From Armatimonadota bacterium (GTDB lineage: Bacteria; Armatimonadota; UBA5829), in NCBI GenBank assembly GCA_012522555.1, contig JAAYKG010000158.1, forward strand, positions 1 through 55,838: a stretch of 55,838 nt of DNA, written 5' to 3'. The translations under genes and the position numbers were made by a program. Numbering within the stretch: position 1 is the stretch's first letter; the number at the start of each line of letters is the position of its first letter. Positions 14,314-52,752 of this stretch are shown one piece after another. The notes below the pieces were generated by a model. That model worked only from the letters and a program-made list of their open reading frames with translations. It had not been told where the DNA came from and did no database searches.

Positions 14314-15534
14314 TTATATCCGAGTTGCAGGTAGCAAGAAGAGTCGGCCTTCGCCGCTGTCGAGTGACAGTTGCAGGCCGGGGGTGTCCGGAGAGTCGTC
14401 CATGACGATTTTTTCCTTGCCGTTGGATTGGTCTACCTCTACGACTTTGTCATCAGGCAGGTCGAACTTAACCGTCGGCCACATACCGTAGTTAGCGTCG
14501 TAGTTGCACAGCAGCACCGCCCGGCGGCCATCGGAGTGCTTGAATACGCCGACCAAATAGTCTCCATCGGAAATGCTCTTGATCGGGGTGCCTTTCAGGG
14601 CCTCGGTGGAATCCTCACCCGGCTTTATGCGGATCACGTCGATGCTGGTCAACTGCATCAGCGTCGGGCCAAGATTGCCAATAGCTTTGTTGATGCGTTT
14701 TGCCTGTTCGTAGTGGCGCGTTTTGTGACCCTCGGCGGTTATAATCGCGCCGCCTTTCGGGAATTCAGGGCTTCTCGGAGTCCAATAACAGAAGTACAGA
14801 ACACCCTTTGCGCCGTAAGCCAAGGAAGCATATATCTGCCATCTCAGGTGCGATTCCGTGGGATCATTATGCGGGCCGAACGGCATAGTATTGAAGAAAT
14901 TCCAGAACGGAATATTTTGCTGCAGTGCGTATTTTCGCATAACGTCAAGATTGCCGCAATAACCGTCGCGACCGTCGGCGGTCGGTGTCAACATCGGATA
15001 ATAATCCATGCACAGTACGTCGCAGGTGGTCTCCTCGGCGAAGCGCTTGATGTATTCATCGTAACTTGAAGTGCCCAGCACGGATAACGGAGCATAATCA
15101 GGATTCAGATTAAAATATGCCAGCTTGCCCGGGCGCAGCTTACGAAGCTCCTCGATGCGGGTTTTTATACTGGGAATCGCACCTGCACCTGGCTCGTCCA
15201 CAATATAATAGCCCCAGCATTCAGGGGTGTTCGGCAGATTTTTCGAGTTGGTCAAATCACGAACAATAGCCGTCATACCATACTTCTTGCACAGCGCCAA
15301 CTGCTTCTTTACATCGCTCTCGGTCTTAGGCCCAAACGCGCCCAAGACAAACGTGAACCCGGCGTCGGCGATTTCTTTATATCGAGCATCGGTGATCTGA
15401 TCCGCAGGCGGATCGACCCAGAAACCAATGGCGAATCGATCCTGCACAAAACGGCCATCCGACTCAGCAGCCATCGACACGCCCACTCCCGCCAGAATAA
15501 GTCCGGCGATCGCAATAAGCACAATCATTCTCAT
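14314..15534 (-). CDS. secreted glycoside-hydrolase-like protein (TIM-barrel type, family uncertain)
   Basis: Frame of ORF 14314..15711 trimmed to ATG 15532-15534 (MRMIVLIAIAGLILAGVGVSMAA signal peptide); the longer form would overlap the NlpC/P60 gene. The functional call is weak and rests on general resemblance only. Confidence 0.5.
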   Translation of the reverse strand: MRMIVLIAIAGLILAGVGVSMAAESDGRFVQDRFAIGFWVDPPADQITDARYKEIADAGFTFVLGAFGPKTESDVKKQLALCKKYGMTAIVRDLTNSKNLPNTPECWGYYIVDEPGAGAIPSIKTRIEELRKLRPGKLAYFNLNPDYAPLSVLGTSSYDEYIKRFAEETTCDVLCMDYYPMLTPTADGRDGYCGNLDVMRKYALQQNIPFWNFFNTMPFGPHNDPTESHLRWQIYASLAYGAKGVLYFCYWTPRSPEFPKGGAIITAEGHKTRHYEQAKRINKAIGNLGPTLMQLTSIDVIRIKPGEDSTEALKGTPIKSISDGDYLVGVFKHSDGRRAVLLCNYDANYGMWPTVKFDLPDDKVVEVDQSNGKEKIVMDDSPDTPGLQLSLDSGEGRLFLLPATRI

Positions 15535-15562
15535 AAAATCCTCATTTCCTCTGTCTATTCGA

Positions 15563-16453
15563 TCAGTCTTCCGGCGCGCCTCCACCGACATCGAGCGTCT
15601 CATACCGCATCCTGCGCGCTCCCCAATATCTGTTGTAGTAACGCGACGTCGGGTCGTCGAATCGCGTAACCTGCACTCCGCCAGCCCCGCCGGAGTGGAT
15701 AAACCAGTCATTGTCCATCGCTATCCCGATATGTGTCACCGCGGATAGATCCGGATCCGGAGCCTTGCCAAAAAACACCAGATCCCCCGTGCGGACGTCT
15801 TCCCGGCTGATACGTTGACACCGCGGATCCCCTGCCTGCATATGAGCATCTCGGAGCAGGGTTATGCCGTGGATGCGGTGGACTAGCTGCACAAATCCTG
15901 AACAGTCGATGCCAAACGGGGAAGTTCCTCCCCACAGGTATGGCACTCCTATGAACCGGCCGGCAGTCTCCAGAAGCTTATCCGGATCAGGCAGCCAAAT
16001 AGTCTGCGCGAGCTGCTTGTCGACTAGTTTCGCATCTCGTTTGCAAACATAGCCGGTGCGCAGATCGGGGAGCTTCAGCTCCACCCAATCGTCTGTTGAA
16101 TCGACGATTTCCAGCTCGGCGCTAATGGTAGCTTTGGTCAGAATCGTGGATTGAGCGTGTGGCTTTTCGTGGATATCGGCCCACAAGGCTCGAATAACGG
16201 CGACCGGGCCGGTGGACGCGTAGGCCGGAGAGGATTGGTCGTCGAATAATCTAACATTTTGGCTGGGAACCCACCCGCGATAGGTATCCCACGTCTGAAC
16301 GTAATACCAGTCTTTTTGTCCGCCTTCGGCTATTATTGGCTGGCCGATAAGCGCCTGGGTCACGCACTCCGTATCGGAGTCAGCGGAGGCGCGGAGAGAG
16401 ACAACATTTGAAACAACTACACCGAGTTGGCCGGCGGCGGTTTTTCTGGTCAT
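15563..16453 (-). CDS. NlpC/P60 (C40) cell-wall peptidase with N-terminal SH3-like domains
   Basis: Catalytic block GVPYLWGGTSPFGIDCSGFVQLV, then THIGIAM. Two SH3b-like repeats (WYYVQTWDTYRGWVPSQNV, WVELKLPDLRTGYV). Start trimmed to ATG 16451-16453 (GAGGA 5 nt upstream). Confidence 0.85.
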   Translation of the reverse strand: MTRKTAAGQLGVVVSNVVSLRASADSDTECVTQALIGQPIIAEGGQKDWYYVQTWDTYRGWVPSQNVRLFDDQSSPAYASTGPVAVIRALWADIHEKPHAQSTILTKATISAELEIVDSTDDWVELKLPDLRTGYVCKRDAKLVDKQLAQTIWLPDPDKLLETAGRFIGVPYLWGGTSPFGIDCSGFVQLVHRIHGITLLRDAHMQAGDPRCQRISREDVRTGDLVFFGKAPDPDLSAVTHIGIAMDNDWFIHSGGAGGVQVTRFDDPTSRYYNRYWGARRMRYETLDVGGGAPED

Positions 16454-16561: not shown

Positions 16562-17206
16562 TCAAGAAAGAAAGGCTTCGGAAATCCAACATACCAGATC
16601 GGCGGCGGCTTTCCCGCTCATGACCTGCGAATAGATGATCGTTCTGGTCGAGTGAGGGTTTGAGCGGGCGGCTATTTTAAGAAGGTTATCTGTTCGTCGC
16701 TTTCGATCATCTTCCGAAAACATCAGCAGTGTGGGTTTATCAGCCATCCAGCGTAAGCAGCATTGCGATATATCAGTGGGAGATATTGCCGCTACCCCAC
16801 GAGCCGTACGACAAATGGACCCAGCGGCCAAAGCGACCGCACCTCCAAATGACCACCCGGCCAAGACCACATCAGTAACGCCCTCATCATCGAGATACTG
16901 GCACAACAGAAGCGCATCAATAGCACACTGGGCGCAGTCTCCGGGGACTCGATATTCCACACGCCCCGAACCTATCCCCAATGCCACCAGAGCATCGTCC
17001 ACAGATTGAAATTGTCTATCAAAGCGAGCGTCGAAATCATCGCCGAGCAGAATTACCGCTTTTCGCGTGCCGTTTTCCAGTCGACAATGCGCAATCATAT
17101 CGCCACGATTGGTGGAGAAAACAATCCGAGTGCGGCCGGCAGAAACCATCTGTTCTCGGACTTCTATCAAATATATATGATCGTCACGACAGCGGGTGAC
17201 TGGCAT
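16562..17206 (-). CDS. alpha/beta-hydrolase fold protein
   Basis: 214-aa ORF with the nucleophile elbow GWSFGG. Substrate unknown. Confidence 0.6.
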   Translation of the reverse strand: MPVTRCRDDHIYLIEVREQMVSAGRTRIVFSTNRGDMIAHCRLENGTRKAVILLGDDFDARFDRQFQSVDDALVALGIGSGRVEYRVPGDCAQCAIDALLLCQYLDDEGVTDVVLAGWSFGGAVALAAGSICRTARGVAAISPTDISQCCLRWMADKPTLLMFSEDDRKRRTDNLLKIAARSNPHSTRTIIYSQVMSGKAAADLVCWISEAFLS

Positions 17207-26438: not shown

Positions 26439-27119
26439 CTATTTCGTTTTCTGCGACATCCGTTCCTGCCCGCACGGACATAACGGCACAAGTGGGCAGA
26501 TTTCGCAGCGCGGTGTGGGAGCCTTGCATATCTCTCGACCGTGAAACACGATGATATGGTTGTAGTTGGTCATTTCCGACTCGGGAAGCAGCGCTCGCAG
26601 GTCGTTTTCGATTTTCTTAGGATCTTTATTTTCGGTAAGCCCAAGTCGACGAGATACCCTGGTGACGTGGGTATCGACGATCACCGCAGGGTGGCCAAAA
26701 CACACCCCAACGATCAGATTAGCGGTTTTTCGCCCCACCCCGCTCAACTTGACCAATTCGTCGATGCTATCCGGCACATCGCCGCCATAGTCGAGCACAA
26801 GCTGCCGTGCAGATTCAATGATGGCTTTGGTTTTGTTTCTGAAAAACCCGGTGGGACGAACTATCTCTTCGAGTTCGTTATAATCGGCATCGGCGAAGGA
26901 TTGGACGCTGGGATACTTTGCAAACAGGCCAGGCGTGACTTTATTAACGCGCTCGTCGGTGCATTGAGCGGCGAGAATGGCCGCCACCATGAGTTGATGG
27001 CAGGTTCTAAAATCCAACGTACACCTTGCGTCGGGATACAACCCTTTCAATATCGCGATTATAACCGATATTCGATCCTGCGGTGGTTCTTGCGAGCGAT
27101 CCGTTATTTTGTCCTGCAT
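26439..27119 (-). CDS. nth: endonuclease III (DNA glycosylase/AP lyase)
   Basis: HhH-GPD block LVKLSGVGRKTANLIV, catalytic-region VDTHVTRVSRRLGL, and a C-terminal 4Fe-4S cluster CKAPTPRCEICPLVPLC. Confidence 0.95.
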   Translation of the reverse strand: MQDKITDRSQEPPQDRISVIIAILKGLYPDARCTLDFRTCHQLMVAAILAAQCTDERVNKVTPGLFAKYPSVQSFADADYNELEEIVRPTGFFRNKTKAIIESARQLVLDYGGDVPDSIDELVKLSGVGRKTANLIVGVCFGHPAVIVDTHVTRVSRRLGLTENKDPKKIENDLRALLPESEMTNYNHIIVFHGREICKAPTPRCEICPLVPLCPCGQERMSQKTK

Positions 27120-27301
27120 GCTATGAATGCCTCAAATGAGCGATCGTAGGTCTTTTCAACCTCTGGCGGAAAACAACAAGCCGGCAATTCATTCATAGCC
27201 AAATGATAGGCAAGGCAATCACAACACTTGCCGTGTCGCGGGCATCCCGGATAAGTGCAGTTGCATCTCTTCGTGTTTTCAGCAAGCTTTTCGCAGGCCA
27301 T
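27104..27301 (-). CDS. small Cys-rich protein (DUF6485-like)
   Basis: 65-aa ORF with CNCTYPGCPRHGKCCDCLAYH...LPACCF. I recall this cysteine pattern from the DUF6485 family (recollection, not verified). It overlaps the nth start by 16 nt. Confidence 0.6.
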   Translation of the reverse strand: MACEKLAENTKRCNCTYPGCPRHGKCCDCLAYHLAMNELPACCFPPEVEKTYDRSFEAFIACRTK

Positions 27302-27375: not shown

Positions 27376-27404
27376 TTGACAGCCTTATCTGGTCTCCATA
27401 TAAT
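27376..27404 (+). promoter_or_regulatory. perfect consensus sigma70 promoter (TTGACA-17-TATAAT)
   Basis: TTGACA at 27376-27381, a 17-nt spacer, and TATAAT at 27399-27404, read directly from the sequence. Confidence 0.6.
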
Positions 27405-27557: not shown

Positions 27558-29996
27558 CTACGTTAGTAAGCCGGCTTCAATCGAATCAACGCCATTCAAT
27601 CGATCGACGAGCCGGCTTATTTTAGTTTGCTCATCATACTCCACCCACAGACAGCTATCAGTCGCATCGTGAATATCTTCGATGTGAGTGATGACGATTA
27701 TCTGCTCGAATCGGTTCTTGAGGTTCTGCATCAAACCCACCACGTTGTCTCGCCTGATCTTGTCCAGTGAACCAAATACCTCGTCGAGAACCAGCAATGA
27801 AAACGATTGCCCAGCACGGTCGGCGATCATCTGCGACACCGCAAGCCGCAGCGCGAGGTTGACCACATCATTCTCGCCCCCTGAAATCACCGGCTTCAGT
27901 TCGCCATCGTCGCGGATTACGGCCGAATAGCTCTCGTTTATCTCCAGAACACTATAGCGACCATCGGTCATTGCCGCCAGAAATTCGCTGGCTACCGACT
28001 CCAACTCCGGTCGAATACGATCGTTCAGCTCGGCTTTCAGCTTGTCTAGTGCAGAGCATAAAGTCACCAAATAAAGCCGATCGGAGCGCCTGACGTTCAA
28101 CAAATTCGCTTTGGAGTTGTAGTCTGCTTCTTCGATATTTATCTGTTTCAATAAAGCATCGGCGGTGTTTACCCCGCCCTGCTGCTTTTCTACCCCCAAA
28201 GCTGCGTCGTTTAGCTGCTGTGAGGCCTGTGTATAGCTGTTAGACAATTCCTCGTGCGCTTCTTTTGAAAAGTCGAGTTCTTTAAGAATCTTTTCTGATT
28301 TCGATATCTCTTCGTTCTTGGATTGAAGCTGAGCTTGTTGATCGGATAGCTGCTCTTCGACTTTGCCTTGCCTTTGCAGTTCGCCTTTCAGCGAATTGTA
28401 TCTATCACGATCCGGCTGAAGGGATTCTCTTAGATTTTTAAGCTCTGTATGACGTTTTTCATCATAACCCTGAGGCAATTCTGCCAACCGCTCTTTGAGC
28501 GGGGCAATTTCTTGAGTTTTACTCTTTATATCACCGCTGATGCGCTGATATTCTTTGACATCCGCATCTGCTTGAGATTTTTCTGCTGTTAGCGCCTTGA
28601 TTTGATCCTTCAGCGATTCAAGGGACTTCAAGCTGCCGGCAAGTTCGCTGTCCTCATTCTCCGGCACAGGTTTGGTTTCAGACAAGGATTGTTGCTTGTC
28701 GGATATATCTTTAAGCTGCTGGCTGAAATTGGCCAGAACTTTGGGTAGTTCGTCCGCAAGGGGTCTCTCACACGTCGGGCATCGACCATCCTGCCCCGCC
28801 TGCTCGATTCGATCCTTTTTCGCCTTGATCTCTTTTGACAGTTTTTCTAATTGGCTGATCTCTGCCTCGATAGAGTGCAAGTTTTTGCTGCGAGTTGTTC
28901 GGCGGTCGTGGATGTTTTTTTCCATTTGAACCAAAGCAGACTCCGCCGCACTGAGAGCCGCCTGCCTGGCTGTTTGTCGATCAAAAGCATCCGATAGCTG
29001 CTTTTCTCTCTTAGCCAGCGTCTGTATATCCTTTAACAAAACGGATATTTTCGCGTCGAGTTTCTGCTTTTCAACTTCGTGTCGCTCAAGCTCATTGAGG
29101 CTTTTTAGTTCATCGGCTTCTTTTTTGTAGCTTTGCAGTCTGGCTGCGATGGTGTCGAATTCGGTGCGTTTAGTCTTTAGTTGTTCGCTTTCTGTTTGCA
29201 GATCATCGACGCGCTTTGCTATCTGTTTCGCATCGGTTTTATCGATTTCCAATCTGCGGGAGACATCTTCATACTGCCTTGCTTTCAGGTCGGAGACCTC
29301 TTTAAGAGGCTTAAGCTCATCTACAGTTGTTTTCAACTTCTTCAGAACAGCTTGAGCATCAGCGAGGGCTTTGGTTGCGGCCTCATATTGCGCTTGAGCA
29401 TCTTTCTTGCGCTGCTTAAGCGCCCCGGGGTCGGGCAAGCCTTTTTCCAATCCCTCAATTTCATGATGCAGGCCCTTTCGATCATCGTTGGCTTTCTCGC
29501 GAGCCTTAGTCAGTCGATCATACCCCAACATTCGAGCGATCGCGGCAGGACGATCCCGACCTTCCAGCGTGGCCATAAACTCCAGGCCTTTTTGTGCGGT
29601 GAAGAAGCTCGTAAAAAAGGCTTGATAGTCCATTCCCAGCAATTGAGGTATAGCAACATCCACTTCTTTTACGCCGGATCTAAGCGGCCGGCCGCCGACA
29701 CTCAACACCGCATTGTTCACTGAGCCGAGGTTTCGCTCAACGAGATATTTCTCTCCGCCTAATTCAAACTCCAGGGAAACCCTTACCTTCGAGCCGCCAG
29801 GCGCTGCGGTTGATTTCACCGTATCCAACACACCCCGCACTGCTCGCGCGCCATACAACGCCCACCCTATAGCTTCCAGAATCGTGGTTTTGCCTGCGCC
29901 GTTCGGGCCGACGATGCCTGTGACACCACTCGAAAAGTCTATGTTTGCATCAATATATTGCCGAAAGTTATACATTTCAAGGCGAACAAGTTTCAC
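27558..29996 (-). CDS. sbcC: Rad50/SbcC-family SMC-like ATPase with central zinc hook
   Basis: 812-aa ORF. Walker A GPNGAGKTT sits at the N-terminus. Long Lys/Glu-rich coiled coils flank a CPTC hook at residues 406-409 (nt 28770-28781), exactly mid-protein. Signature SGGENDVVNLALRL and Walker B LLVLDEVFGSLD lie at the C-terminus. The GTG start overlaps the sbcD stop (GTGA). Confidence 0.9.
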   Translation of the reverse strand: MKLVRLEMYNFRQYIDANIDFSSGVTGIVGPNGAGKTTILEAIGWALYGARAVRGVLDTVKSTAAPGGSKVRVSLEFELGGEKYLVERNLGSVNNAVLSVGGRPLRSGVKEVDVAIPQLLGMDYQAFFTSFFTAQKGLEFMATLEGRDRPAAIARMLGYDRLTKAREKANDDRKGLHHEIEGLEKGLPDPGALKQRKKDAQAQYEAATKALADAQAVLKKLKTTVDELKPLKEVSDLKARQYEDVSRRLEIDKTDAKQIAKRVDDLQTESEQLKTKRTEFDTIAARLQSYKKEADELKSLNELERHEVEKQKLDAKISVLLKDIQTLAKREKQLSDAFDRQTARQAALSAAESALVQMEKNIHDRRTTRSKNLHSIEAEISQLEKLSKEIKAKKDRIEQAGQDGRCPTCERPLADELPKVLANFSQQLKDISDKQQSLSETKPVPENEDSELAGSLKSLESLKDQIKALTAEKSQADADVKEYQRISGDIKSKTQEIAPLKERLAELPQGYDEKRHTELKNLRESLQPDRDRYNSLKGELQRQGKVEEQLSDQQAQLQSKNEEISKSEKILKELDFSKEAHEELSNSYTQASQQLNDAALGVEKQQGGVNTADALLKQINIEEADYNSKANLLNVRRSDRLYLVTLCSALDKLKAELNDRIRPELESVASEFLAAMTDGRYSVLEINESYSAVIRDDGELKPVISGGENDVVNLALRLAVSQMIADRAGQSFSLLVLDEVFGSLDKIRRDNVVGLMQNLKNRFEQIIVITHIEDIHDATDSCLWVEYDEQTKISRLVDRLNGVDSIEAGLLT

Positions 29997-31129
29997 GGCG
30001 TCCTCTCCAGTTTTCCCAAATATTGCCGGCCTAAGCTTGTCAATCTCTCCCTGTCGACACCACCTGGGATATCATAAGTTTTGGCGAAATCCGCCCACTC
30101 ATCTTCCAACGTCCTCACCGTGCCCGGCTCGTGCCTGCTTCCGTCGGCGGCGCGAGTCGCAGGCGGCCTCATCTGAAGCTCGAAATGGAGCGCCTCGGCT
30201 CGGATCGAGCGCATGAAAGCAAAGTCCATATCCGATTGCACACTGCGAGGCAAATTCTCAATAACCAACCGAACGATCTTGTTAACATGCCCCCCTGAAA
30301 TACCTTTTATGCGGTTGGTTATCATCGTATTAAGCTCTTCGGCAGTAAGCCCTTCGGCATCGATCTTGCGGATGTCGATCACATCGCGGGTTTCGACTTC
30401 ATGAAACTTTATCAACTCTCTATTGTCGAGGTTGTATTCTATGAACCCTTTTTTAACGTCTGCCTCGCTCCAGATATTTGTGGAGGAATATTCGAGCGAG
30501 CCTGAATAATAAGCGTTATCGGCGAGCTTCGTAAAAGTGTGGTAGTGACCAAAGGCAATATAGTCCCAGTCGTCGCTTATGACCTGCGACCGGCTTAGTT
30601 GCGCTTGATCGTAGGCGCTTTTCATCACCCCTTCCACCGTTCCGTGCGCAAGCAGAATATTGTATTTACTTGTCGTATCCGGCTCTATTTTGAGGGATGA
30701 CACCTGCGGCAAAGCGCGATGACACAAGCAAAATACAGACATGTCCAGGTTTTCTAGTTTAACTTGGATATATTCGCTGTGCACAACTCGTATCCCAGGC
30801 AAATTTGCAAAAAGATCGAGTATACAGCCCGTATCCGCCGAGCGCGGCGAGTCGTGATTCCCGCCTATAATTATGATAGGCGCATCGATCTGCTGCGTCA
30901 CCTTGGCCAGTTCAAGAAACGTATGCTGGATCGTTAGATTGCTCGGCCTCACCACATGAAACATATCCCCCGCTATCAAAACAATGTCCGGCCGAAGCTG
31001 CACCGTCTTTTTAAGCGCGGAACGAAATGCAATAAACACATCAGCCTCGCGGGCGTTTAGCCCCTGTGGGTTCACGCGATTATATGCGCGATAGCCAAGA
31101 TGAGGGTCTGCGAGATGGACTAAACGCAT
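29993..31129 (-). CDS. sbcD: Mre11/SbcD-family nuclease (calcineurin-like phosphoesterase)
   Basis: 378-aa ORF with phosphoesterase motifs HLADPHLG, GDMFH, GNHD, LLAHG and GHYH in canonical order. Confidence 0.9.
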   Translation of the reverse strand: MRLVHLADPHLGYRAYNRVNPQGLNAREADVFIAFRSALKKTVQLRPDIVLIAGDMFHVVRPSNLTIQHTFLELAKVTQQIDAPIIIIGGNHDSPRSADTGCILDLFANLPGIRVVHSEYIQVKLENLDMSVFCLCHRALPQVSSLKIEPDTTSKYNILLAHGTVEGVMKSAYDQAQLSRSQVISDDWDYIAFGHYHTFTKLADNAYYSGSLEYSSTNIWSEADVKKGFIEYNLDNRELIKFHEVETRDVIDIRKIDAEGLTAEELNTMITNRIKGISGGHVNKIVRLVIENLPRSVQSDMDFAFMRSIRAEALHFELQMRPPATRAADGSRHEPGTVRTLEDEWADFAKTYDIPGGVDRERLTSLGRQYLGKLERTP

Positions 31130-31132
31130 TGG

Positions 31133-33106
31133 TTATACCCCCTCAAAAGGGTCAACGCCAGCGTCAACGTCCTTAATGATGACGGGAGGCTCGTCATCGT
31201 CAAGAAGATTGGCTTTCTTGCGCACCTGCCGACGGAAATAAGCCATCGGATCATCGGGGTTCTTTTGTATCGTGATGTTCATCGCTCGCACCACTTCTTC
31301 GTCGTCCTGGGTCTCCGCGACCAGGTCTTTGACAGCGCTGCGGCTGAGGTTTCGGTCGATTCTCGACAGATTCTGCCATATGGCTTCCTCTATCGGCAAC
31401 TCGTCCGCGGGCGGAAAGATTTTGATTCCATCAGGCCCGCGCAGTACGTTGGGCCTGGGGAACTTCACGAATATGGGCTGGTTGAAATGCGGATGGCGGA
31501 TCATCAACTGTCCCTTGCTCAAAGTCGCCAGCTTCTCTTTGGTCGCCGGCGTCAACACCTGATAGCCCGGAGTAGCAAGCTCGTCCATATCCATTCGGCC
31601 ATACATACACGTTGCAGAGTTGCCAACGATGCGTTTGTGGACCTGACTTCGGAATTGTTGGGCTGAAAATAACACCAAACCCAAATATCGCCCACGCTCG
31701 GATATATCGAGCAGGGTCTGGCGGAGGTACGACTCCTGCCCATCCGACGGGGCATATTTATTAAGCTCATCGACCACAACAATAATATGCTTGACGCCTA
31801 GGTTGCCCTTCTCAAGGTGCTCGCGCAGCTTGCTCACGATTCGGGTAAACACCAGATCCTGCGCCTGTGCTTCCTGTTTTGCCACGTCGACTACGTATAT
31901 CCCGCGATCCTCGAAGCTTCCCCAAGGCAGATCCGAGGTGAACTCATCCGGGCTGATAAGCCCCCGATAGCGCCCGGACAGGTTGGTCAGTCGGTTGTAG
32001 ACCTTGCGAATCGTCGCGTAGTGATGAGTCTTCCATTCAGACCTGTTGGAGGTCTCCATCTCCCGTAAAACCGCGTCAAACCACTGATTCAGATGCTGGA
32101 AATTTTTGACTTCGAATGGCTGGCCGTTGGCTTCGCTTTTTTGCTCGAAGACCCTCTGGCGAATGAATTGTATCAGCGCATCGGCCTTCGCATCGACATC
32201 ATCTCGATTGAGGACAACCTCGGTATATTCCAGGATGTCTTTAAGGCCCCACGATAGAGGTTTGACGCTGCCGATGAGGTCGGGATGGGTGCGCAGAGTG
32301 TTCAAGTTTACACGATCAGGCTTATAGGGAGCGTAGTAGTTTACGTTGGCGAAAGGCTCGCACGGAACTTGGAGCTTTTCATACTTCTCCGCATCTTCCG
32401 GGGTGATGGTTTGTATATTATTGTCTAAGTATTTTTTTTCATACTTATACCCTTCAGGCGCACTTGCGGGGAAGTCTAAAAACAGCATATCACAGCCCTT
32501 GACATTGAAACACACAACAGCCACATCCTCGCGGAAACTCGCAAAAATGCTTTGCAGTATGAATTCGATCGAACTCGTCTTTGTCGCCAGGCCGGATACC
32601 CCGGTAATGTTCAAATGAGCCGCCTCCGGGCCCAACAAAAACTCCGAATCTAAATATACGGGAGCGAGCAGATCGCCGTTTTGATATAGACCGACGGGTA
32701 TTTCTGATCTGCCAACATAGGCATCCATTCGCAGCGCACGAGCGACAGCAGCATCGTCCGCCAAAAATACCGGCCCGATGGGAACGGGCTGGAGAGGCTC
32801 CTCAGGCTCAACCCTTAACACCGCCGCGGAATATAGCTTTATTTCCGGCCGAATAGTAGGCGGTTCGGCTTGCGGGTCACCCTCCGCCCCAATATAATCG
32901 TGAAGCGGCGAGCCAAGGTCGGTAAACCCAAAACCTTCCACAACAACTCCAAACACTTCGACTTTTTCGGTAACAACAACTACCAGCGTTCCGATTCCGA
33001 CCTTTGAATCATCCGCCGTCCAGAAGCTGAAGCTGTAGGCCGTGCTGGGTTTCGCCTCCGTCGCTACTACGCGGCCAATCTGCTGTAGTCCGTTTTCCAT
33101 GTTCAC
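31133..33106 (-). CDS. herA: HerA-like FtsK/HerA-superfamily ATPase (HAS-barrel plus ATPase) with a deviant Walker A
   Basis: 657-aa ORF. The N-terminal beta-barrel-like segment is IGRVVATEAKP...IGTLVVVV...VFGVVVE. The P-loop region reads HLNITGVSGLATKTSS and Walker B reads HIIVVVDELNKYAP. It starts 20 nt downstream of the NurA-like gene stop. The start may be ATG 33100 rather than GTG 33106. Confidence 0.7.
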   Translation of the reverse strand: MNMENGLQQIGRVVATEAKPSTAYSFSFWTADDSKVGIGTLVVVVTEKVEVFGVVVEGFGFTDLGSPLHDYIGAEGDPQAEPPTIRPEIKLYSAAVLRVEPEEPLQPVPIGPVFLADDAAVARALRMDAYVGRSEIPVGLYQNGDLLAPVYLDSEFLLGPEAAHLNITGVSGLATKTSSIEFILQSIFASFREDVAVVCFNVKGCDMLFLDFPASAPEGYKYEKKYLDNNIQTITPEDAEKYEKLQVPCEPFANVNYYAPYKPDRVNLNTLRTHPDLIGSVKPLSWGLKDILEYTEVVLNRDDVDAKADALIQFIRQRVFEQKSEANGQPFEVKNFQHLNQWFDAVLREMETSNRSEWKTHHYATIRKVYNRLTNLSGRYRGLISPDEFTSDLPWGSFEDRGIYVVDVAKQEAQAQDLVFTRIVSKLREHLEKGNLGVKHIIVVVDELNKYAPSDGQESYLRQTLLDISERGRYLGLVLFSAQQFRSQVHKRIVGNSATCMYGRMDMDELATPGYQVLTPATKEKLATLSKGQLMIRHPHFNQPIFVKFPRPNVLRGPDGIKIFPPADELPIEEAIWQNLSRIDRNLSRSAVKDLVAETQDDEEVVRAMNITIQKNPDDPMAYFRRQVRKKANLLDDDEPPVIIKDVDAGVDPFEGV

Positions 33107-33126
33107 CTCTATTGGCGCTCGAGATA

Positions 33127-34149
33127 TCAGCCTTCTCGACTCCGCGATATTTCACTCAACCGAAACAGCCTCGCATCCAGGCTGGTATGTGACGGTGCAA
33201 GGCTTTTCATATATAATTCGCAGTCGCGAATGGGGTAGATCATCTTGTCCCACCTCGAATCAGGCAGGCTCAAAGGGGCGCGCTCGGCCAGTATCCAGCG
33301 CGAAATGTCATCGATCATCGCAAGGGCGCGGGCGGAACGGGGAGCTTCCACTCGAATAAGACCGAAATATGGATCCTTGCCTTCGCTTGGGTGCATCCGC
33401 AAATACCAGCTATAAACCGGCCTGCGCCTTCCGTGAACAAGGGGAATAAAGGCTCCGCTTCGCTCACCTACCTTCATCGAGAGCACAACCCGCTGCTCAT
33501 CCCAAGTCAGATATTGCGTGCCGTGGCTTTTGGTGACGCCAACGACATTTGCCTCACCATAGTCTGATTGAAGGGAGCCATCGACCAACAGCCAGCCAGG
33601 CCCTTTGTTTTGATCGACCCATTTTGCGGCTAGTTCGCTTTCTAATGCGCCGCGAATCGTGCTTATCTTGTCGTAGGCAACCTGCGCTAGAGCTATCGGA
33701 TGCTCGATGGTGTCAGAGTCGCTTGTGTCCACGATTTTAACGCCGCTGATCGTCAATCCGTAACGCTCGGCCATCCCCACCGAAAAATAGAGGGATTCAT
33801 CGACCTTGTGGAAGCCGGGCAAAGTGCGCATCCGCCTATCGGAGCCTCTCACGCGAATCGCGGCGGCAACATATCCATAAAGGATCGGAACAGGCGAATT
33901 GACGTAGATTGGGCCGCGGGGGCGCTGCATGCCGTCCATAAAACAGCAAAACTCGCCCTTGCACGCTCCGCCGACGTCGATTGCCATTATGCCGCACTCC
34001 TCAGCCAGCTCACGCCCGCCCGGGATCACTTCGGACTCGGCTCTCATAGGCGTTTCGTCGGCGAGTGGGGAGTGGCTCAAGGTCACTCTGACATCGACTG
34101 CAGGCAGGGTTCGTATATAGGCTTCCAGGTTGCCCAGCAGATCGCTCAC
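33127..34149 (-). CDS. nurA: NurA-like nuclease
   Basis: 340-aa ORF (GTG start, GAGAAGGGA RBS). Blocks IMAIDVGG, WLLVDGSL, GVTKSH, WYLRM and GLIRVE match the order of the conserved NurA-domain motifs as I recall them. Its position directly upstream of a HerA-like gene supports the call. Confidence 0.6.
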   Translation of the reverse strand: MSDLLGNLEAYIRTLPAVDVRVTLSHSPLADETPMRAESEVIPGGRELAEECGIMAIDVGGACKGEFCCFMDGMQRPRGPIYVNSPVPILYGYVAAAIRVRGSDRRMRTLPGFHKVDESLYFSVGMAERYGLTISGVKIVDTSDSDTIEHPIALAQVAYDKISTIRGALESELAAKWVDQNKGPGWLLVDGSLQSDYGEANVVGVTKSHGTQYLTWDEQRVVLSMKVGERSGAFIPLVHGRRRPVYSWYLRMHPSEGKDPYFGLIRVEAPRSARALAMIDDISRWILAERAPLSLPDSRWDKMIYPIRDCELYMKSLAPSHTSLDARLFRLSEISRSREG

Positions 34150-49456: not shown

Positions 49457-50494
49457 CTACTCACCCTCCTCGCAAGCTAACTCGATCAACATATCCAGCA
49501 ACTGCCCAAATGAAATGCCCACGGCTTTTGCCGCTTCAGGCAGAAGGCTGGTCGGCGTCATACCTGGTATAGTATTCACCTCAAGAACGCGCATTCCTTC
49601 TGATCCGGCGATTAAATCAACCCGAGCCATGCCACTGCAGCCCAAGGATTTGAAAGACTTCACCGCGAGCTTTTGCGCCAGGGCAGTGTCGGAATCACTT
49701 AGCCGGGCGGGAATAATATGCTCCGAGCCGCCCAGCGCATATTTGGATTCGTAGTCATAATACTCGCTTTTTGGGATTATCTCGATTACCGGAAGCGCAT
49801 ACGCCTCGCCGTTTCCCAGAACGCTGACGGTCAATTCCGGCCCGGAGACGAATTGCTCAACGACTATCTGGTCGTCATATACGGCCGCTTTCTCAATAGC
49901 CTGGTCGAGCATATCGGCTGATTTCACTTTCGTCATCCCTATAGTCGACCCTTGCCGGCTGGGCTTCACCATCACGGGATAGCCTATGCGAGCGACCGAC
50001 TCCGCGACACCCCCACGATCCCATTCGCCATCGCCAACCGTGAAATCGACCGAATCCGGAACAGGGATTCCGTCAGCGGCCAGGACTTTTTTGGCCATCG
50101 ATTTGTCCATAGCAAGTGCGCTGGACAACACCCCCGAGCCGGTATATGGTATGCCGAAAAGCTCCAACATGCCCTGAATTGTGCCATCCTCACCATATTT
50201 GCCGTGCAGCGCTATGAAAACGCAATCGACTTTCGTATGAGAACCCGAACCTATTATGCTGTCGACTGCGGCTAACGCTGCCATCGCTTCCCTGGCCTGA
50301 CTTACCGCATCGATCTCCATATCCGCGCCCTTGAGAACGCTTCGGCTGCTGCCGGTAAGCAGCGCCGCATCGACCCCGAAAGCATCATATTTGTTTGAAT
50401 CAAGAGACTCAAGTATCTGTTTGCCCGTGGAAAGAGACACGTCTCTTTCCGATGATATGCCGCCCATCAGGACAGCGACCCGCTTCTTCACCAT
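49457..50494 (-). CDS. ddl: D-alanine--D-alanine ligase
   Basis: 345-aa ATP-grasp ORF with VAVLMGGISSERDVS, FIALHGKYGEDGTIQG, and the C-terminal VLEVNTIPGMT. Confidence 0.95.
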   Translation of the reverse strand: MVKKRVAVLMGGISSERDVSLSTGKQILESLDSNKYDAFGVDAALLTGSSRSVLKGADMEIDAVSQAREAMAALAAVDSIIGSGSHTKVDCVFIALHGKYGEDGTIQGMLELFGIPYTGSGVLSSALAMDKSMAKKVLAADGIPVPDSVDFTVGDGEWDRGGVAESVARIGYPVMVKPSRQGSTIGMTKVKSADMLDQAIEKAAVYDDQIVVEQFVSGPELTVSVLGNGEAYALPVIEIIPKSEYYDYESKYALGGSEHIIPARLSDSDTALAQKLAVKSFKSLGCSGMARVDLIAGSEGMRVLEVNTIPGMTPTSLLPEAAKAVGISFGQLLDMLIELACEEGE

Positions 50495-52752
50495 TCGCCT
50501 ACCAATCTGACCTCGTATTCCAGCTCGATTCCATGTTTTTCTCGCACCATAGCTCTTACGCGTTCGGAGAGGGTGCGCAAATCCGCCGCCGTCGCATTGC
50601 CGGTGTTCATTATAAAATTAGCGTGCACAGTGGAGACTTCCGCCCCACCCTCGCGCAGGCCCTTTGCTCCGGCAGATTCGATCAACCTGCCAGCGCTTTT
50701 GTCCGCCGGGTTCTTGAAGAAACAGCCCGCGCTCTTACCTCTAGGTTGGGTCTCAGCGCGATGCTTCCGCACACTGCTCAAATGCTCTGTTATCGCCGAA
50801 CCATCACCAGGCGACAAAGCAAATGTAGCAGACGTAATAATCAAGGAGTGATCCGTCTGGAAGCGGCTGTTACGATACGTAAAGCCGCATTCCTCTTTTG
50901 ACAAGGTCTGTATCTCTCCGGCGCTGCTGACAACCGTGACACTCCGCGTGACCGCGTCTATGTAGCCGCGATGGGTTCCGGCGTTCATGACAATCGCCCC
51001 TCCGACGCTGCCCGGCACCGTTCCGACTCCCTCCAAACCGGTCAGCGACCGCTCTGCGGCCACATCCGCCACTTTGGATATGTCAACCCCGCCGCCAGCC
51101 TTTATAACGCTGCCGTCGACCTCGATGCCCGTCAGGGAGCCGCGCATCCGTATGACAACCCCACGAATTCCCTTGTCGGAAACCAGCAGATTCGCGCCGT
51201 CGCCGAGGATCATCCAGGGCAGGTCATGGGATGAGATATATTTCATCAAACCGGCGAGTTCTTCTTCGGATTCCACTTCGATATAATAATCAGCAGGCCC
51301 GCCGACCCCGAGGGTAGTATGGCTCGCCATCGGCTCGTTTTTTGTGAACTTCAGCGGAAAATCCATCGAGCGAGCAGATAGAAGCTCGGCTAAACGCTCG
51401 CTGGCGCGACGGATATCCCCTGCCCCGAGCACTATAACCATGTCTCCGTCATTGAGGGACTCGGCTAGTTCATCGGGGAGCGCGTCTATGTCCGCAGAGT
51501 AACGAGCGTTTTTATAGCCTTTTTGCGCCATCAAGCCGATAATAGACTCGGAGCCGACACCCTCGATTGGTTGTTCTCTGGCGGCGTAAATCGGCGCGAC
51601 TATAACCTGATCCGCGATGGAGAGCGCTTCGGCAATATCAGCCTGAAAAATCTGCGTGCGCGAATATAAATGAGGCTGAAATATCGCGATTATGCGCTTG
51701 TCGTATGCCGAGCGGGCTGCGGACAGTGTAGCTTTGATCTCCGATGGGTGGTGCGCATAATCGTCTACTACTAAGACCTTGCCGTCGTCATATAGCACTT
51801 CGAAGCGCCGCCCCGCGCCTCGAAAATCGGACAGCGCGCGAGCCACCACCTCAAATTCAATGCCCATCTCGAAAGCTGCCGCAGCAGCCGACAAGGAGTT
51901 CAGCACATTATGCATGCCGACGACTCCAAGATTGACCACCCCCAGCGGCCTGCCGCTACGAACCAGGGTGTAGGAGGGCCGTGGGGTGGATGTGTTTATG
52001 TCTACAGCCATCACATCCGGATCGCCTTCCACGCCATACCGCACGACTCTTCGTCCGCTCCGCTCACAAATCTTGCGCGCTCTCGCATCATCCCAGCACG
52101 CAATCACGACACCATCACCAGTTACCTGGCTGACGAACTGCGCAAACGCATTCTCGATATTTTCGACAGTCTTATAGTAGTCGAGATGATCTGCGTCGAT
52201 GTTGGTTATAACCGCAATGGATGGGTGCAGGTGCAGAAACGATCCAAATGCCTCGCATGCTTCAGTGAGGATGATCGAATCGCGCCCCAGCCTTGCATTG
52301 CCGCCCAGGCTCTTGAGATCACCGCCGATAAGCGCAGTAGCGTCGAGAGCCGCGCACTCGAATATCGTGTCTATCATCGAAGTAGTAGTGGTTTTGCCGT
52401 GAGTGCCCGCGACTGCAATCCGATGTTTGTATGGCTTCATCAAACGCCCGAGCATCTCCGGGCGTTCTATTGCAGAAATCTCGAGGCGGCGGGCTTCCGT
52501 AAGTTCGGGGTTGTCCGAAGGTATCGCCGCAGAATATACGACGACATCAGCCCCGTGAACGTTTTCCGCTCTGTGCCCGATCGAAATGGTGACACCCTCG
52601 GAACGCAATCTGTGGACAGCGTCGTTTTCCTGCTTGTCCGAGCCTGTCACTACAACCCCACGCTGATGGAGTATGTGTGCAATAGCGCTCATGCCACTGC
52701 CGCCTATACCGATGAGATGATATTTAGATTTTGGATAATCGTTCATTGCCAC
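50488..52752 (-). CDS. murC/murB: bifunctional MurC (UDP-MurNAc--L-Ala ligase) fused to MurB (UDP-GlcNAc-enolpyruvate reductase)
   Basis: Single uninterrupted 754-aa ORF. The N-terminal approx 460 aa carry MurC motifs (HLIGIGGSGMS, GTHGKTTTT, NIDADHLD). The C-terminal approx 290 aa carry MurB motifs (MASHTTLGVGGPADYY, GSVGGAIVMNAG, SAGCFFKNP). Confidence 0.9.
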   Translation of the reverse strand: MAMNDYPKSKYHLIGIGGSGMSAIAHILHQRGVVVTGSDKQENDAVHRLRSEGVTISIGHRAENVHGADVVVYSAAIPSDNPELTEARRLEISAIERPEMLGRLMKPYKHRIAVAGTHGKTTTTSMIDTIFECAALDATALIGGDLKSLGGNARLGRDSIILTEACEAFGSFLHLHPSIAVITNIDADHLDYYKTVENIENAFAQFVSQVTGDGVVIACWDDARARKICERSGRRVVRYGVEGDPDVMAVDINTSTPRPSYTLVRSGRPLGVVNLGVVGMHNVLNSLSAAAAAFEMGIEFEVVARALSDFRGAGRRFEVLYDDGKVLVVDDYAHHPSEIKATLSAARSAYDKRIIAIFQPHLYSRTQIFQADIAEALSIADQVIVAPIYAAREQPIEGVGSESIIGLMAQKGYKNARYSADIDALPDELAESLNDGDMVIVLGAGDIRRASERLAELLSARSMDFPLKFTKNEPMASHTTLGVGGPADYYIEVESEEELAGLMKYISSHDLPWMILGDGANLLVSDKGIRGVVIRMRGSLTGIEVDGSVIKAGGGVDISKVADVAAERSLTGLEGVGTVPGSVGGAIVMNAGTHRGYIDAVTRSVTVVSSAGEIQTLSKEECGFTYRNSRFQTDHSLIITSATFALSPGDGSAITEHLSSVRKHRAETQPRGKSAGCFFKNPADKSAGRLIESAGAKGLREGGAEVSTVHANFIMNTGNATAADLRTLSERVRAMVREKHGIELEYEVRLVGEW

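Follow-up and report, generated by a model that had tools for sequence, protein, structure and literature searches.

A chromosomal nurA-herA-mre11-rad50 operon of an Armatimonadota bacterium, a probable DNA double-strand-break end-processing system

A contig stretch of 55,838 nt from an Armatimonadota bacterium (GCA_012522555.1, JAAYKG010000158.1; the whole stretch is referred to below as the window) contains the genes nurA, herA, mre11 and rad50 in what is probably a co-transcribed chromosomal operon encoding a machine that processes the ends of DNA double-strand breaks. The four protein families and the archaeal operon formed by them are known; here, HerA and NurA of bacterial type are joined to mre11-rad50. 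Direct support for the proposal is provided by the sequence and fold families of the four proteins, the catalytic motifs kept in two phyla, the geometry of the operon, the position of its promoter, the linkage of the genes and their housekeeping context.

Gene layout and promoter

The four ORFs are all on the minus strand, with nurA first and rad50 last. The nurA gene (33127..34149) encodes a predicted 340-aa RNase H-like nuclease of the NurA family, bacterial type, and herA (31133..33106) a predicted 657-aa hexameric ATPase/translocase of the HerA clade. They are followed by the sbcD homologue mre11 (29993..31129), whose predicted product is a 378-aa Mn-dependent phosphoesterase nuclease, and by the sbcC homologue rad50 (27558..29996), which would specify an SMC-like ABC ATPase of 812 aa that contains a coiled coil and, at its centre, a CPTC zinc hook. 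The tight packing described in the initial annotation was verified for all coordinates and junctions. As read directly from the letters, the TGA of nurA is separated by 20 nt from the GTG of herA, the TAA of herA by 3 nt from the ATG of mre11, and the mre11 and rad50 ORFs overlap by GTGA. An alternative herA start, the ATG at 33100 two codons past the GTG, is preceded by a GAGGTG Shine-Dalgarno sequence and would yield the 655-aa form found in databases.

A sigma-70-type promoter-like site (34208-34179, minus strand; TTGACA, 18-nt spacer, TG-extended TACATT) precedes the nurA start by ~30 nt and scores 10 of 12 matches with the TG present. The candidate promoter claimed for this position does exist, and an equivalent pair, TTGACA with an extended -10 (TGnTAnnnT), occurs at the same place 5' of nurA in at least nine other Armatimonadota loci (L001, L002, L003, L007, L008, L009, L011, L013 and L014). 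No damage-response operator was found within the window. Judged by sequence, the four genes form an operon-like unit whose predicted promoter is kept in position.

The HerA and NurA proteins

The 657-aa HerA gave no match to Pfam or NCBIfam at E<=0.01, including the HerA/DUF87 profile PF01935 suggested in the initial annotation, and a precomputed PF01935 match was present in just one of 120 homologues. In contrast, comparison of the HerA family profile with the PDB identified D. radiodurans HerA (7f6d_B) at E=8e-58, therefore the failure of the curated profiles reflects a gap in profile sensitivity. With the AF2 model (pLDDT 79.5), Foldseek ranked D. radiodurans HerA first (2e-31, TM 0.61-0.68, aligned over ~600 columns), followed by archaeal HerA, including 9x1l and 4d2i (about 1e-20 to 1e-21), and then by HerAs of defence systems (about 1e-16 to 1e-18). 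An N-terminal HAS-type beta-barrel is followed in the protein by a RecA-like core and then by a helical extension of ~100 aa at the C terminus that is specific to the clade. Both HerA features noted earlier were recovered, the barrel in the AF2/Foldseek match and the Walker B motif as VVVVDE (D446E447). The Walker A motif has the deviant form GVSGLATKTS, which is invariant throughout the family, and the alignment shows the P-loop SG(L/V)ATKTS to be common to the window HerA and D. radiodurans HerA. Sequence and model place the 657-aa protein in the HerA clade of the FtsK-HerA P-loop ATPases, and ATPase activity is predicted for it.

A similar picture was obtained for NurA. The PF09376 profile proposed for it scored 17.9 bits and did not pass the gathering cut-off of 21, the NCBIfam profile search yielded no match, and none of 120 homologues had a precomputed Pfam domain; all those among them that are named are called hypothetical protein. 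The AF2 model (pLDDT 91.8) nevertheless matched the RNase H-like fold of solved NurA structures: Foldseek returned D. radiodurans NurA (7f6d_G, E=4e-13) and Thermotoga maritima TM1739 (1zup, 5e-12) at the top, and further down Sulfolobus NurA (2ygk, 2.5e-6) and TdpB (8wfd_G, 1e-5). TdpB belongs to TdpAB, an example of a HerA and NurA-like pair that can also serve defence. Seven residues (D72, E118, E170, D190, K207, H209 and Y305) do not vary among 53 homologues. Two of the blocks previously read as NurA-like are conserved, LLVDGSL (D190) and KSH (K207, H209), whereas AIDVGG, with a variable D58, is not; at the N-terminal end, FMDG (D72) is the acidic motif that does not vary. In S. solfataricus NurA the acidic catalytic residues are D58, E116 and D133, with conserved K202 and Y298 (PMC3326311). 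Judged by secondary-structure position, D72 (strand 1), E118 or E170, D190 (end of strand 4), K207 and Y305 of the window protein may be their counterparts. On the strength of the modelled fold, we assign the 340-aa protein to the NurA family, bacterial type.

The Mre11 and Rad50 proteins

Mre11 matched Pfam Metallophos (3.8e-11; 44 bits, cut-off 21.5), and NCBIfam Mre11_Sulfo (2.5e-21) and sbcd (5.9e-18), in the latter two cases short of the model cut-offs (76 bits against 500 and 66 bits against 77.65, respectively). Its closest PDB sequences are the Mre11 proteins of M. jannaschii and P. furiosus, and comparison with E. coli SbcD gave E=6e-4. By these sequence scores it is a divergent lineage of the Mre11/SbcD family. 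All five phosphoesterase motifs claimed for it are present (DPH, GDMFH, GNHD, LAHG and GHYH), and conservation across 64 orthologues reaches 95% or more at D8, H10, D55, H58, H92, D93, H162 and H197.

In Rad50, the Pfam models AAA_23, SMC_N and SbcC_Walker_B were matched, the hook model only weakly (17 bits, cut-off 24.3); the Metallophos and AAA_23 searches proposed in the initial annotation were thus both positive. Among the NCBIfam models, the archaeal PRK03918 scored 220 bits, versus 116 bits for sbcc (TIGR00618) and 37 bits for sbcc_Bac, and the closest PDB sequences are again those of M. jannaschii and P. furiosus. The protein has the split ABC head (Walker A and B, Q-loop, signature, D-loop and H-loop), the coiled coil and the CxxC zinc hook at the apex that mark the family. 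The motifs that had been read in it, Walker A (G30-K36), the signature (S705GGE), Walker B (D738E739) and the hook (C406-P-x-C409), show conservation of 95% or more in 48 orthologues, as do Q135 of the Q-loop and H771 of the H-loop. The Mre11 and Rad50 assignments hold at the level of sequence, with every catalytic motif and the CPxC hook kept.

Linkage in Armatimonadota and Gemmatimonadota

Several hundred species genomes in the phyla Armatimonadota and Gemmatimonadota encode relatives of HerA, and the order and strand of the cluster are repeated in most of 80 related loci. Of the 64 informative loci, 58 have mre11-rad50 downstream of herA, either directly or with one or two genes in between (50/51 Gemmatimonadota-type and 8/13 Armatimonadota), and nurA is upstream of herA in 43 of 55 Gemmatimonadota-type and 15 of 18 Armatimonadota loci. 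This linkage was also found in a 41%-identical lineage. Each of the four proteins splits cleanly into phylum-specific clades, which fits co-inheritance. Linkage of the four genes is far beyond chance, and the cluster is the common arrangement in Gemmatimonadota and a frequent one in Armatimonadota. The initial annotation had allowed that it might prove common and already characterised; it is common, but no sign of earlier characterisation was found.

The linkage has exceptions. In 5 of 13 Armatimonadota loci nurA-herA occurs with no mre11-rad50 within 8 kb, and the pair stands alone in L009, L011, L013, L014, L081 and L083. There are also loci, such as L005 and L034, with herA-mre11-rad50 and no adjacent nurA, and in some Gemmatimonadota loci one or two unrelated genes separate herA from mre11. 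Moreover, the gene order looks like two ordinary bacterial pairs side by side, nurA-herA, presumably as in Deinococcus and Thermus, and then sbcD-sbcC in the usual bacterial order. The separability of the pairs, the intervening genes and this order would suit nurA-herA and sbcD-sbcC (mre11-rad50) being independent modules that share a promoter with no physical or sequential cooperation and act on different substrates, for example SbcCD in hairpin cleavage and HerA-NurA in a separate task. We consider this unlikely. The herA-mre11 linkage persists across two phyla and in the 41%-identical lineage, the two genes are just 3 nt apart in the window, and herA keeps adjoining mre11-rad50 even where nurA is not adjacent. 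Furthermore, archaeal herA, mre11, rad50 and nurA form one operon and their products cooperate in end resection (PMC3326311, PMC5715905), and binding of Mre11 to archaeal HerA is stated in the title of Quaiser et al. 2008, which is among the references of PMC5715905.

Genomic context

The four-gene cluster is surrounded by genes of the core chromosome (rodA/ftsW, M16 peptidases, nth, gpsA, alr, htrA and serS, together with the dcw cluster from murG to ftsZ). Its neighbours include nth, rodA and the genes of peptidases and a GH20 enzyme; no mobile-element genes flank the cluster, as had been claimed. On plasmids, phages and viral contigs, even the closest relatives reach no more than 40% identity, most of them ~30%. 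Taking into account the core-chromosome context and the lack of close relatives on plasmids and viruses, double-strand-break end processing is the most likely function and is favoured over phage defence, in agreement with the initial annotation. The adjacent nth gene, which had been used as an argument for repair, is weak evidence, since a 65-aa ORF and a separate promoter-like site precede it and it adjoins the cluster only in L001, the closest relative.

A role in destroying the ends of foreign DNA, as an anti-phage or anti-plasmid module, appears quite improbable. Such a module would combine a HerA motor and a NurA-like nuclease (cf. TdpAB) with an SMC-like ATPase and a phosphoesterase (cf. 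Lamassu/MADS-type systems), and partial PADLOC matches were indeed obtained for HerA (mad8, 5e-11; HerA model, 4e-4) and Rad50 (mad3, 1e-26; LmuB, 6e-26). The Foldseek matches include TdpB in the case of NurA and, for HerA, numerous chains of SIR2-HerA and DUF4297-HerA, viral contigs and a locus resembling a mobile element carry remoter HerA relatives (about 30-35% identical), and Blackwood et al. speculated that HerA-NurA might destroy foreign DNA (PMC3326311). However, the PADLOC matches reflect generic P-loop and SMC similarity, and in structure the HerAs of defence systems match least well, with 10-16% identity, far behind D. radiodurans HerA. None of the MADS, Lamassu, SIR2, DUF4297 or dnd partner genes is present at the cluster, which is flanked by housekeeping genes close to the dcw cluster. 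Nearly all sampled Gemmatimonadota loci have the four-gene cluster and, together with the phylum split of all four proteins, this distribution is what a core function passed on vertically would show rather than a patchy defence island.

It is very improbable that the whole four-gene block was gained from archaea by horizontal transfer: the scores of Rad50 (220 bits on the archaeal model against 116 on bacterial sbcc) and, slightly, of Mre11 are higher on archaeal models, the top PDB sequences of both are archaeal (see above) and herA-mre11-rad50 is the archaeal order, but at the sequence level HerA and NurA match no archaeal structure, their PDB matches being confined to the D. radiodurans pair and TM1739, the non-canonical P-loop is shared by D. 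radiodurans HerA, nurA is at the opposite end of the cluster compared with archaea, and the GC content of the cluster (0.49-0.53) is not anomalous against 0.50-0.56 across the window. The description "archaeal-style" thus applies to the composition of the cluster and the herA-mre11-rad50 order, but not to HerA and NurA, which are of the bacterial (Deinococcus) type.

Proposed mechanism and significance

In the envisaged end-processing machine, the promoter at 34208-34179 would give rise to a single mRNA, and translation of the four genes would be coupled by the short gaps and the GTGA overlap. A Mre11 dimer and a Rad50 dimer, with its ABC heads and with its coiled coils joined by the CPTC zinc hook, would attach to DNA ends that are broken or blocked and clean such ends through cleavage controlled by ATP. 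A HerA hexamer bearing a NurA dimer on its barrel face would then translocate on the DNA with ATP and feed it through the NurA ring, which would degrade the 5' strand or both strands. The expected outcome is 3' single-stranded tails for RecA-dependent recombination. The HerA6-NurA2 and Mre11(2)-Rad50(2) assemblies, the cooperation of the two sub-complexes, their substrates and the role in recombination are inferred by analogy. For D. radiodurans HerA-NurA (PDB 7F6D) the analogy draws on the general biochemistry of the pair. For archaea it draws on the published system (PMC3326311, PMC5715905), in which a hexameric HerA ring and a NurA dimer associate in 6:2 stoichiometry (PMC3326311).

As a tentative extension, a Deinococcus-like HerA-NurA might have been recruited in Armatimonadota and Gemmatimonadota into one operon with an archaeal-like Mre11-Rad50. 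The result would be a separate bacterial assembly of the four-part machine known from archaea, serving these phyla as the main system of double-strand-break resection in place of RecBCD/AddAB, with the C-terminal extension of HerA contacting Mre11-Rad50; we regard this as possible but doubtful.

To our knowledge, the Deinococcus and Thermus pairs are the only bacterial HerA-NurA pairs that have been studied. Their phenotypes are ambiguous and the pairs are not known to be linked to SbcCD. Loss of nurA/herA in Thermus thermophilus reportedly raised UV resistance, which weighs against the end-processing proposal. The conserved, phylum-congruent linkage of herA-mre11-rad50 in two large phyla that have received little study argues strongly, through guilt by association, for bacterial HerA-NurA acting together with Mre11-Rad50 in the archaeal manner, and indicates lineages in which this can be tested. 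There is also an annotation gap: current Pfam and NCBIfam models miss HerA and NurA of the cluster, and as a result hundreds of genomes label them "ATP-binding protein" or "hypothetical protein".

Comparison with known systems

The best match in sequence and fold for both HerA and NurA is the D. radiodurans pair (DR_0837/DR_0836; PDB 7F6D, 7WRW and 7WRX), which likewise consists of a HerA with barrel and RecA-like core and an RNase H-like NurA, with the P-loop SG(V/L)ATKTS. Identity is low (HerA ~25%, NurA 19%), and the window HerA has ~100 extra C-terminal residues (554-657) past the end of the alignment with D. radiodurans HerA. In D. radiodurans, too, nurA is presumably located directly upstream of herA. 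The window nurA-herA is in one operon with mre11-rad50; in Deinococcus and Thermus we take sbcCD to be encoded apart from nurA-herA.

The archaeal operon of Sulfolobus and Pyrococcus comprises the same four families in a tight arrangement, herA followed by mre11 and rad50, and it is archaeal models that give the window Mre11 and Rad50 their highest scores. In contrast to the window, nurA is last in the archaeal operon, HerA and NurA resemble their archaeal counterparts at the fold level only (10-16% identity), and the host is a bacterium for which the data give no sign of thermophily. The P-loop of Sulfolobus HerA is canonical, unlike the deviant bacterial form in the window HerA. The Walker A lysine of the Sulfolobus protein is K154 (PMC3326311). 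For archaea, PMC3326311 and PMC5715905 report the 6:2 HerA:NurA architecture and the cooperation with Mre11-Rad50, which are expected here too.

Bacterial SbcCD (E. coli, Bacillus, Staphylococcus) shares with the window Mre11-Rad50 the folds of the phosphoesterase and the ABC ATPase, a zinc hook and a gene layout in which the nuclease gene is first and the two ORFs overlap. The window proteins are, however, much weaker on proteobacterial and firmicute models (see the E. coli SbcD and sbcc_Bac values above), the window Rad50 is shorter (812 aa versus ~1050 aa for E. coli SbcC), and mre11-rad50 is linked to herA, unlike bacterial SbcCD. The HerA defence systems (SIR2-HerA/Nezha, DUF4297-HerA and TdpAB) similarly combine a HerA-fold hexameric ATPase with a nuclease or effector, which is NurA-like in the case of TdpB. 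Their HerAs are the least similar of the HerA matches and their SIR2, DUF4297 and dnd partners are not present, whereas the window cluster lies among housekeeping genes and is distributed throughout the lineage in congruence with phylum.

Gene organization and putative promoter

The four minus-strand open reading frames proposed in the initial annotation were recovered at exactly the same coordinates: nurA (33127-34149, 340 aa), herA (31133-33106, 657 aa), mre11 (29993-31129, 378 aa) and rad50 (27558-29996, 812 aa). The tight packing described there was likewise found when the junctions were read directly, with a 20-nt gap between the TGA of nurA and the GTG of herA, a 3-nt gap between the TAA of herA and the start of mre11, and a GTGA overlap between mre11 and rad50. 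The same reading revealed Shine-Dalgarno-like purine runs before all four starts. An alternative ATG, preceded by GAGGTG, lies two codons past the herA GTG and yields the 655-aa form present in the databases.

The candidate promoter at 34208-34179 (-) stood up to inspection: it consists of TTGACA, 18 nt, and a TG-extended TACATT. At least nine further Armatimonadota loci, whose surrounding sequence has otherwise diverged, have a TTGACA / TGnTAnnnT pair at the matching place before nurA. Scanning of the cluster revealed no convincing internal promoter, and the terminator scan after rad50 returned no convincing candidate, the count being that of the shuffled expectation.

A LexA/Cheo-type box (GAAC-N4-GTTC) upstream of nurA is absent from the window. 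Among the related loci found with the window HerA (designated L001, the closest relative, L002, etc.), 11 of 55 had the motif, with at most one mismatch, in the 220 nt that precede nurA, and 1 of 55 had it in a control region within herA; before nurA it was perfect in L036 and L070, and was also seen in L003, L007, L017, L052, L057, L077 and others. It may reflect SOS control in some lineages. The enrichment is mild and too weak to use, and the box was dropped as evidence.

Identification of the four proteins

Mre11 and Rad50 were recognized by standard profiles and by sequence matches to solved structures, in agreement with their original assignment. Mre11 exceeded the Pfam Metallophos threshold and gave scores with both the archaeal Mre11 and the bacterial SbcD models, and Rad50 matched AAA_23, SMC_N and SbcC_Walker_B (Pfam), scoring 220 bits with the archaeal Rad50 model versus 116 bits with the bacterial sbcc model. 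For both proteins the best sequence matches among solved structures were those of Methanocaldococcus and Pyrococcus; Thermotoga matched less well, and E. coli SbcD much less well.

The 657-aa protein had no match in Pfam or NCBIfam searches, and its designation as HerA was borne out by other means. A profile of its family matched D. radiodurans HerA (PDB 7F6D chain B) with E=8e-58 and nothing else meaningful in the PDB, and residue alignment revealed that the two proteins have an unusual P-loop in common (ITGVSGLATKTS in the window HerA, ISGISGVATKTS in D. radiodurans HerA). The AF2 model (pLDDT 79.5) had D. radiodurans HerA as its closest fold (E=2e-31), followed by archaeal HerA (Thermococcus, Sulfolobus) and then by the defence HerAs of the SIR2-HerA and DUF4297-HerA complexes. 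Where the alignment with D. radiodurans HerA stops, the protein continues at its C-terminus with a helical extension of some 100 aa (approximately residues 554-657; window 31133-31444), whose conservation in Gemmatimonadota reaches about residue 630 and which is found also in loci without adjacent mre11-rad50.

The 340-aa protein scored 17.9 bits with Pfam NurA, under the cut-off of 21, and it was the predicted fold that upheld its identity as NurA: the confident AF2 model (pLDDT 91.8) matched D. radiodurans NurA, Thermotoga TM1739 and Sulfolobus NurA, and more weakly TdpB. The invariant residues D72, E118/E170, D190, K207, H209 and Y305 appear to correspond in order and structural position to the set D58/E116/D133/K202/Y298 of Sulfolobus NurA (PMC3326311). 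The block AIDVGG, originally taken as NurA-like, is not conserved; the conserved N-terminal acidic motif is FMDG. In all four proteins the catalytic motifs are at least 95% conserved across Armatimonadota and Gemmatimonadota, and the analysis itself establishes this retention of motifs and the family assignments, as it does the operon geometry and the linkage.

Distribution, linkage and inheritance

More than 5,800 homologues of the window HerA were detected, and almost all organism-named entries among the best 120 were from Armatimonadota, which places the window in this phylum. Where HerA and NurA homologues bear a name in public databases, it is mostly 'ATP-binding protein' or 'hypothetical protein'; the JGI label 'DNA helicase HerA-like ATPase' is attached to a few HerA homologues. 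A scan using one genome per species returned at least about 550 stretches matching HerA, the best 80 of which belong to Armatimonadota (56-82% identity) and Gemmatimonadota (55-59%). Near a HerA of 41% identity from a further lineage there are once more a Metallophos gene and, downstream, a large gene.

Linkage was determined by tblastn with the four window proteins on the related loci. Among loci with at least 3 kb of downstream sequence, mre11-rad50 followed herA on the same strand in 50 of 51 of the Gemmatimonadota type and 8 of 13 from Armatimonadota. Upstream of herA, nurA was detected in 43 of 55 Gemmatimonadota-type and 15 of 18 Armatimonadota loci. Some loci contain nurA-herA only (L009, L011, L013, L014 and the more distant L081 and L083), and some, L005 (7983-13528) and L034 (7959-15401), have herA-mre11-rad50 without an adjacent nurA and with unrelated genes upstream, namely a glycoside-hydrolase-like gene and carB. 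It is unlikely that the cluster consists of two modules that are merely co-regulated.

In many Gemmatimonadota an extra gene lies between herA and mre11 (L035, L038, L045, L055, L063, L065, L068 and others), whose product of about 300 aa has a signal peptide at its N-terminus and belongs to no obvious family; some loci, L030 and L034, have two such paralogues.

Neighbour-joining trees of HerA, NurA, Mre11 and Rad50 all displayed a clean split between the two phyla, which fits inheritance as a unit within each phylum. Co-divergence measured by percent identity gave positive but modest correlations (Spearman 0.32-0.57), and the phylum split is the better evidence.

Genomic context

The window is ordinary core chromosome, with rodA/ftsW, M16 peptidases, nth, a GH20 enzyme, gpsA, alr, htrA, serS, a sigma/anti-sigma pair and a cell-division and cell-wall cluster extending from murG to ftsZ. 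Its gene content includes no integrase, transposase, methyltransferase or other defence gene, and the earlier statement that no mobile-element genes flank the cluster holds. A role as a defence module, for which the resemblance of the HerA model to defence HerAs might speak, appears improbable: relatives found in plasmid, phage and viral-contig sequences share at most 40% and mostly about 30% identity, and the lineage-wide, phylum-congruent pattern in a housekeeping setting fits core DNA metabolism rather than a defence island. PADLOC matches (mad8, mad3, LmuB, PbeC, PtuA) were rejected as generic ATPase similarity lacking system context; those to mad8, mad3 and LmuB were partial, and no system partners were found near them. 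ATPases resembling D. radiodurans HerA and sharing about 30-35% identity with the window HerA form a set apart (L082, L086-L102 and the phage records MT836743.1 and KP836355.1); they occur on viral contigs and in a mobile-element-like locus in which IstB and an N6/N4 methyltransferase are encoded as well.

The neighbouring nth, which the initial annotation had counted in favour of repair, loses this value: it is a separate unit, and among the relatives only L001, the closest, has it beside the cluster. Between it and rad50 are 256 nt, and it is preceded by a small Cys-rich ORF of 65 aa (27104-27301 (-), beginning MACEKLAENTKRCNCTYPGCPRHGKCCDC) that overlaps the nth start, and because the promoter scan placed a promoter-like site of their own at 27369-27341 (-), nth forms a transcription unit apart from rad50. 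A perfect 12/12 sigma-70 consensus, TTGACA-17-TATAAT, at 27376-27404 (+) is directed at the 3' end of rad50; behind it neither a convincing ORF nor an Rfam match was found, and it could drive a tiny peptide or an RNA, antisense or small. The window as a whole gave no match in Rfam and tRNA scans. The ORFs at 14314-15711 (-) (465 aa) and 16562-17206 (-) (214 aa) had no Pfam match at E<=1e-5. In the dcw cluster, a single 754-aa ORF (50488-52752 (-)) joins a MurC domain (Mur ligase) to a MurB domain (FAD_binding_4 and MurB_C).

Proposed function and comparison with known systems

The cluster probably encodes a DNA end-resection machine in which Mre11-Rad50 would recognize and trim DNA ends, after which HerA, as a hexamer bearing a NurA dimer on the face of its barrel, would use ATP to resect over long distances and so produce 3' tails that pass to RecA. 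We infer these assemblies, their cooperation and their physiological role from the homologous systems of archaea (PMC3326311, PMC5715905) and of D. radiodurans (HerA-NurA, PDB 7F6D).

The cluster is of use in two respects: it connects bacterial HerA-NurA with Mre11-Rad50 in a concrete way that can be tested, and it exposes a gap in profile-based annotation. The cluster is widespread in two phyla and unannotated, and is not categorically new. The bacterial HerA-NurA pairs characterized so far are not known to be linked to SbcCD, and we know of no previous description of the four-gene arrangement in bacteria.

The operon had been called archaeal-style, and in part this is so: its composition and the herA-mre11-rad50 order are shared with the operon of thermophilic archaea. 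Its HerA and NurA, in contrast, belong to the bacterial, Deinococcus-type lineage, and transfer of the whole block from archaea, despite the affinity of Mre11 and Rad50 to archaeal proteins, is very improbable. The order nurA-herA followed by mre11-rad50 can be read as two bacterial pairs joined.
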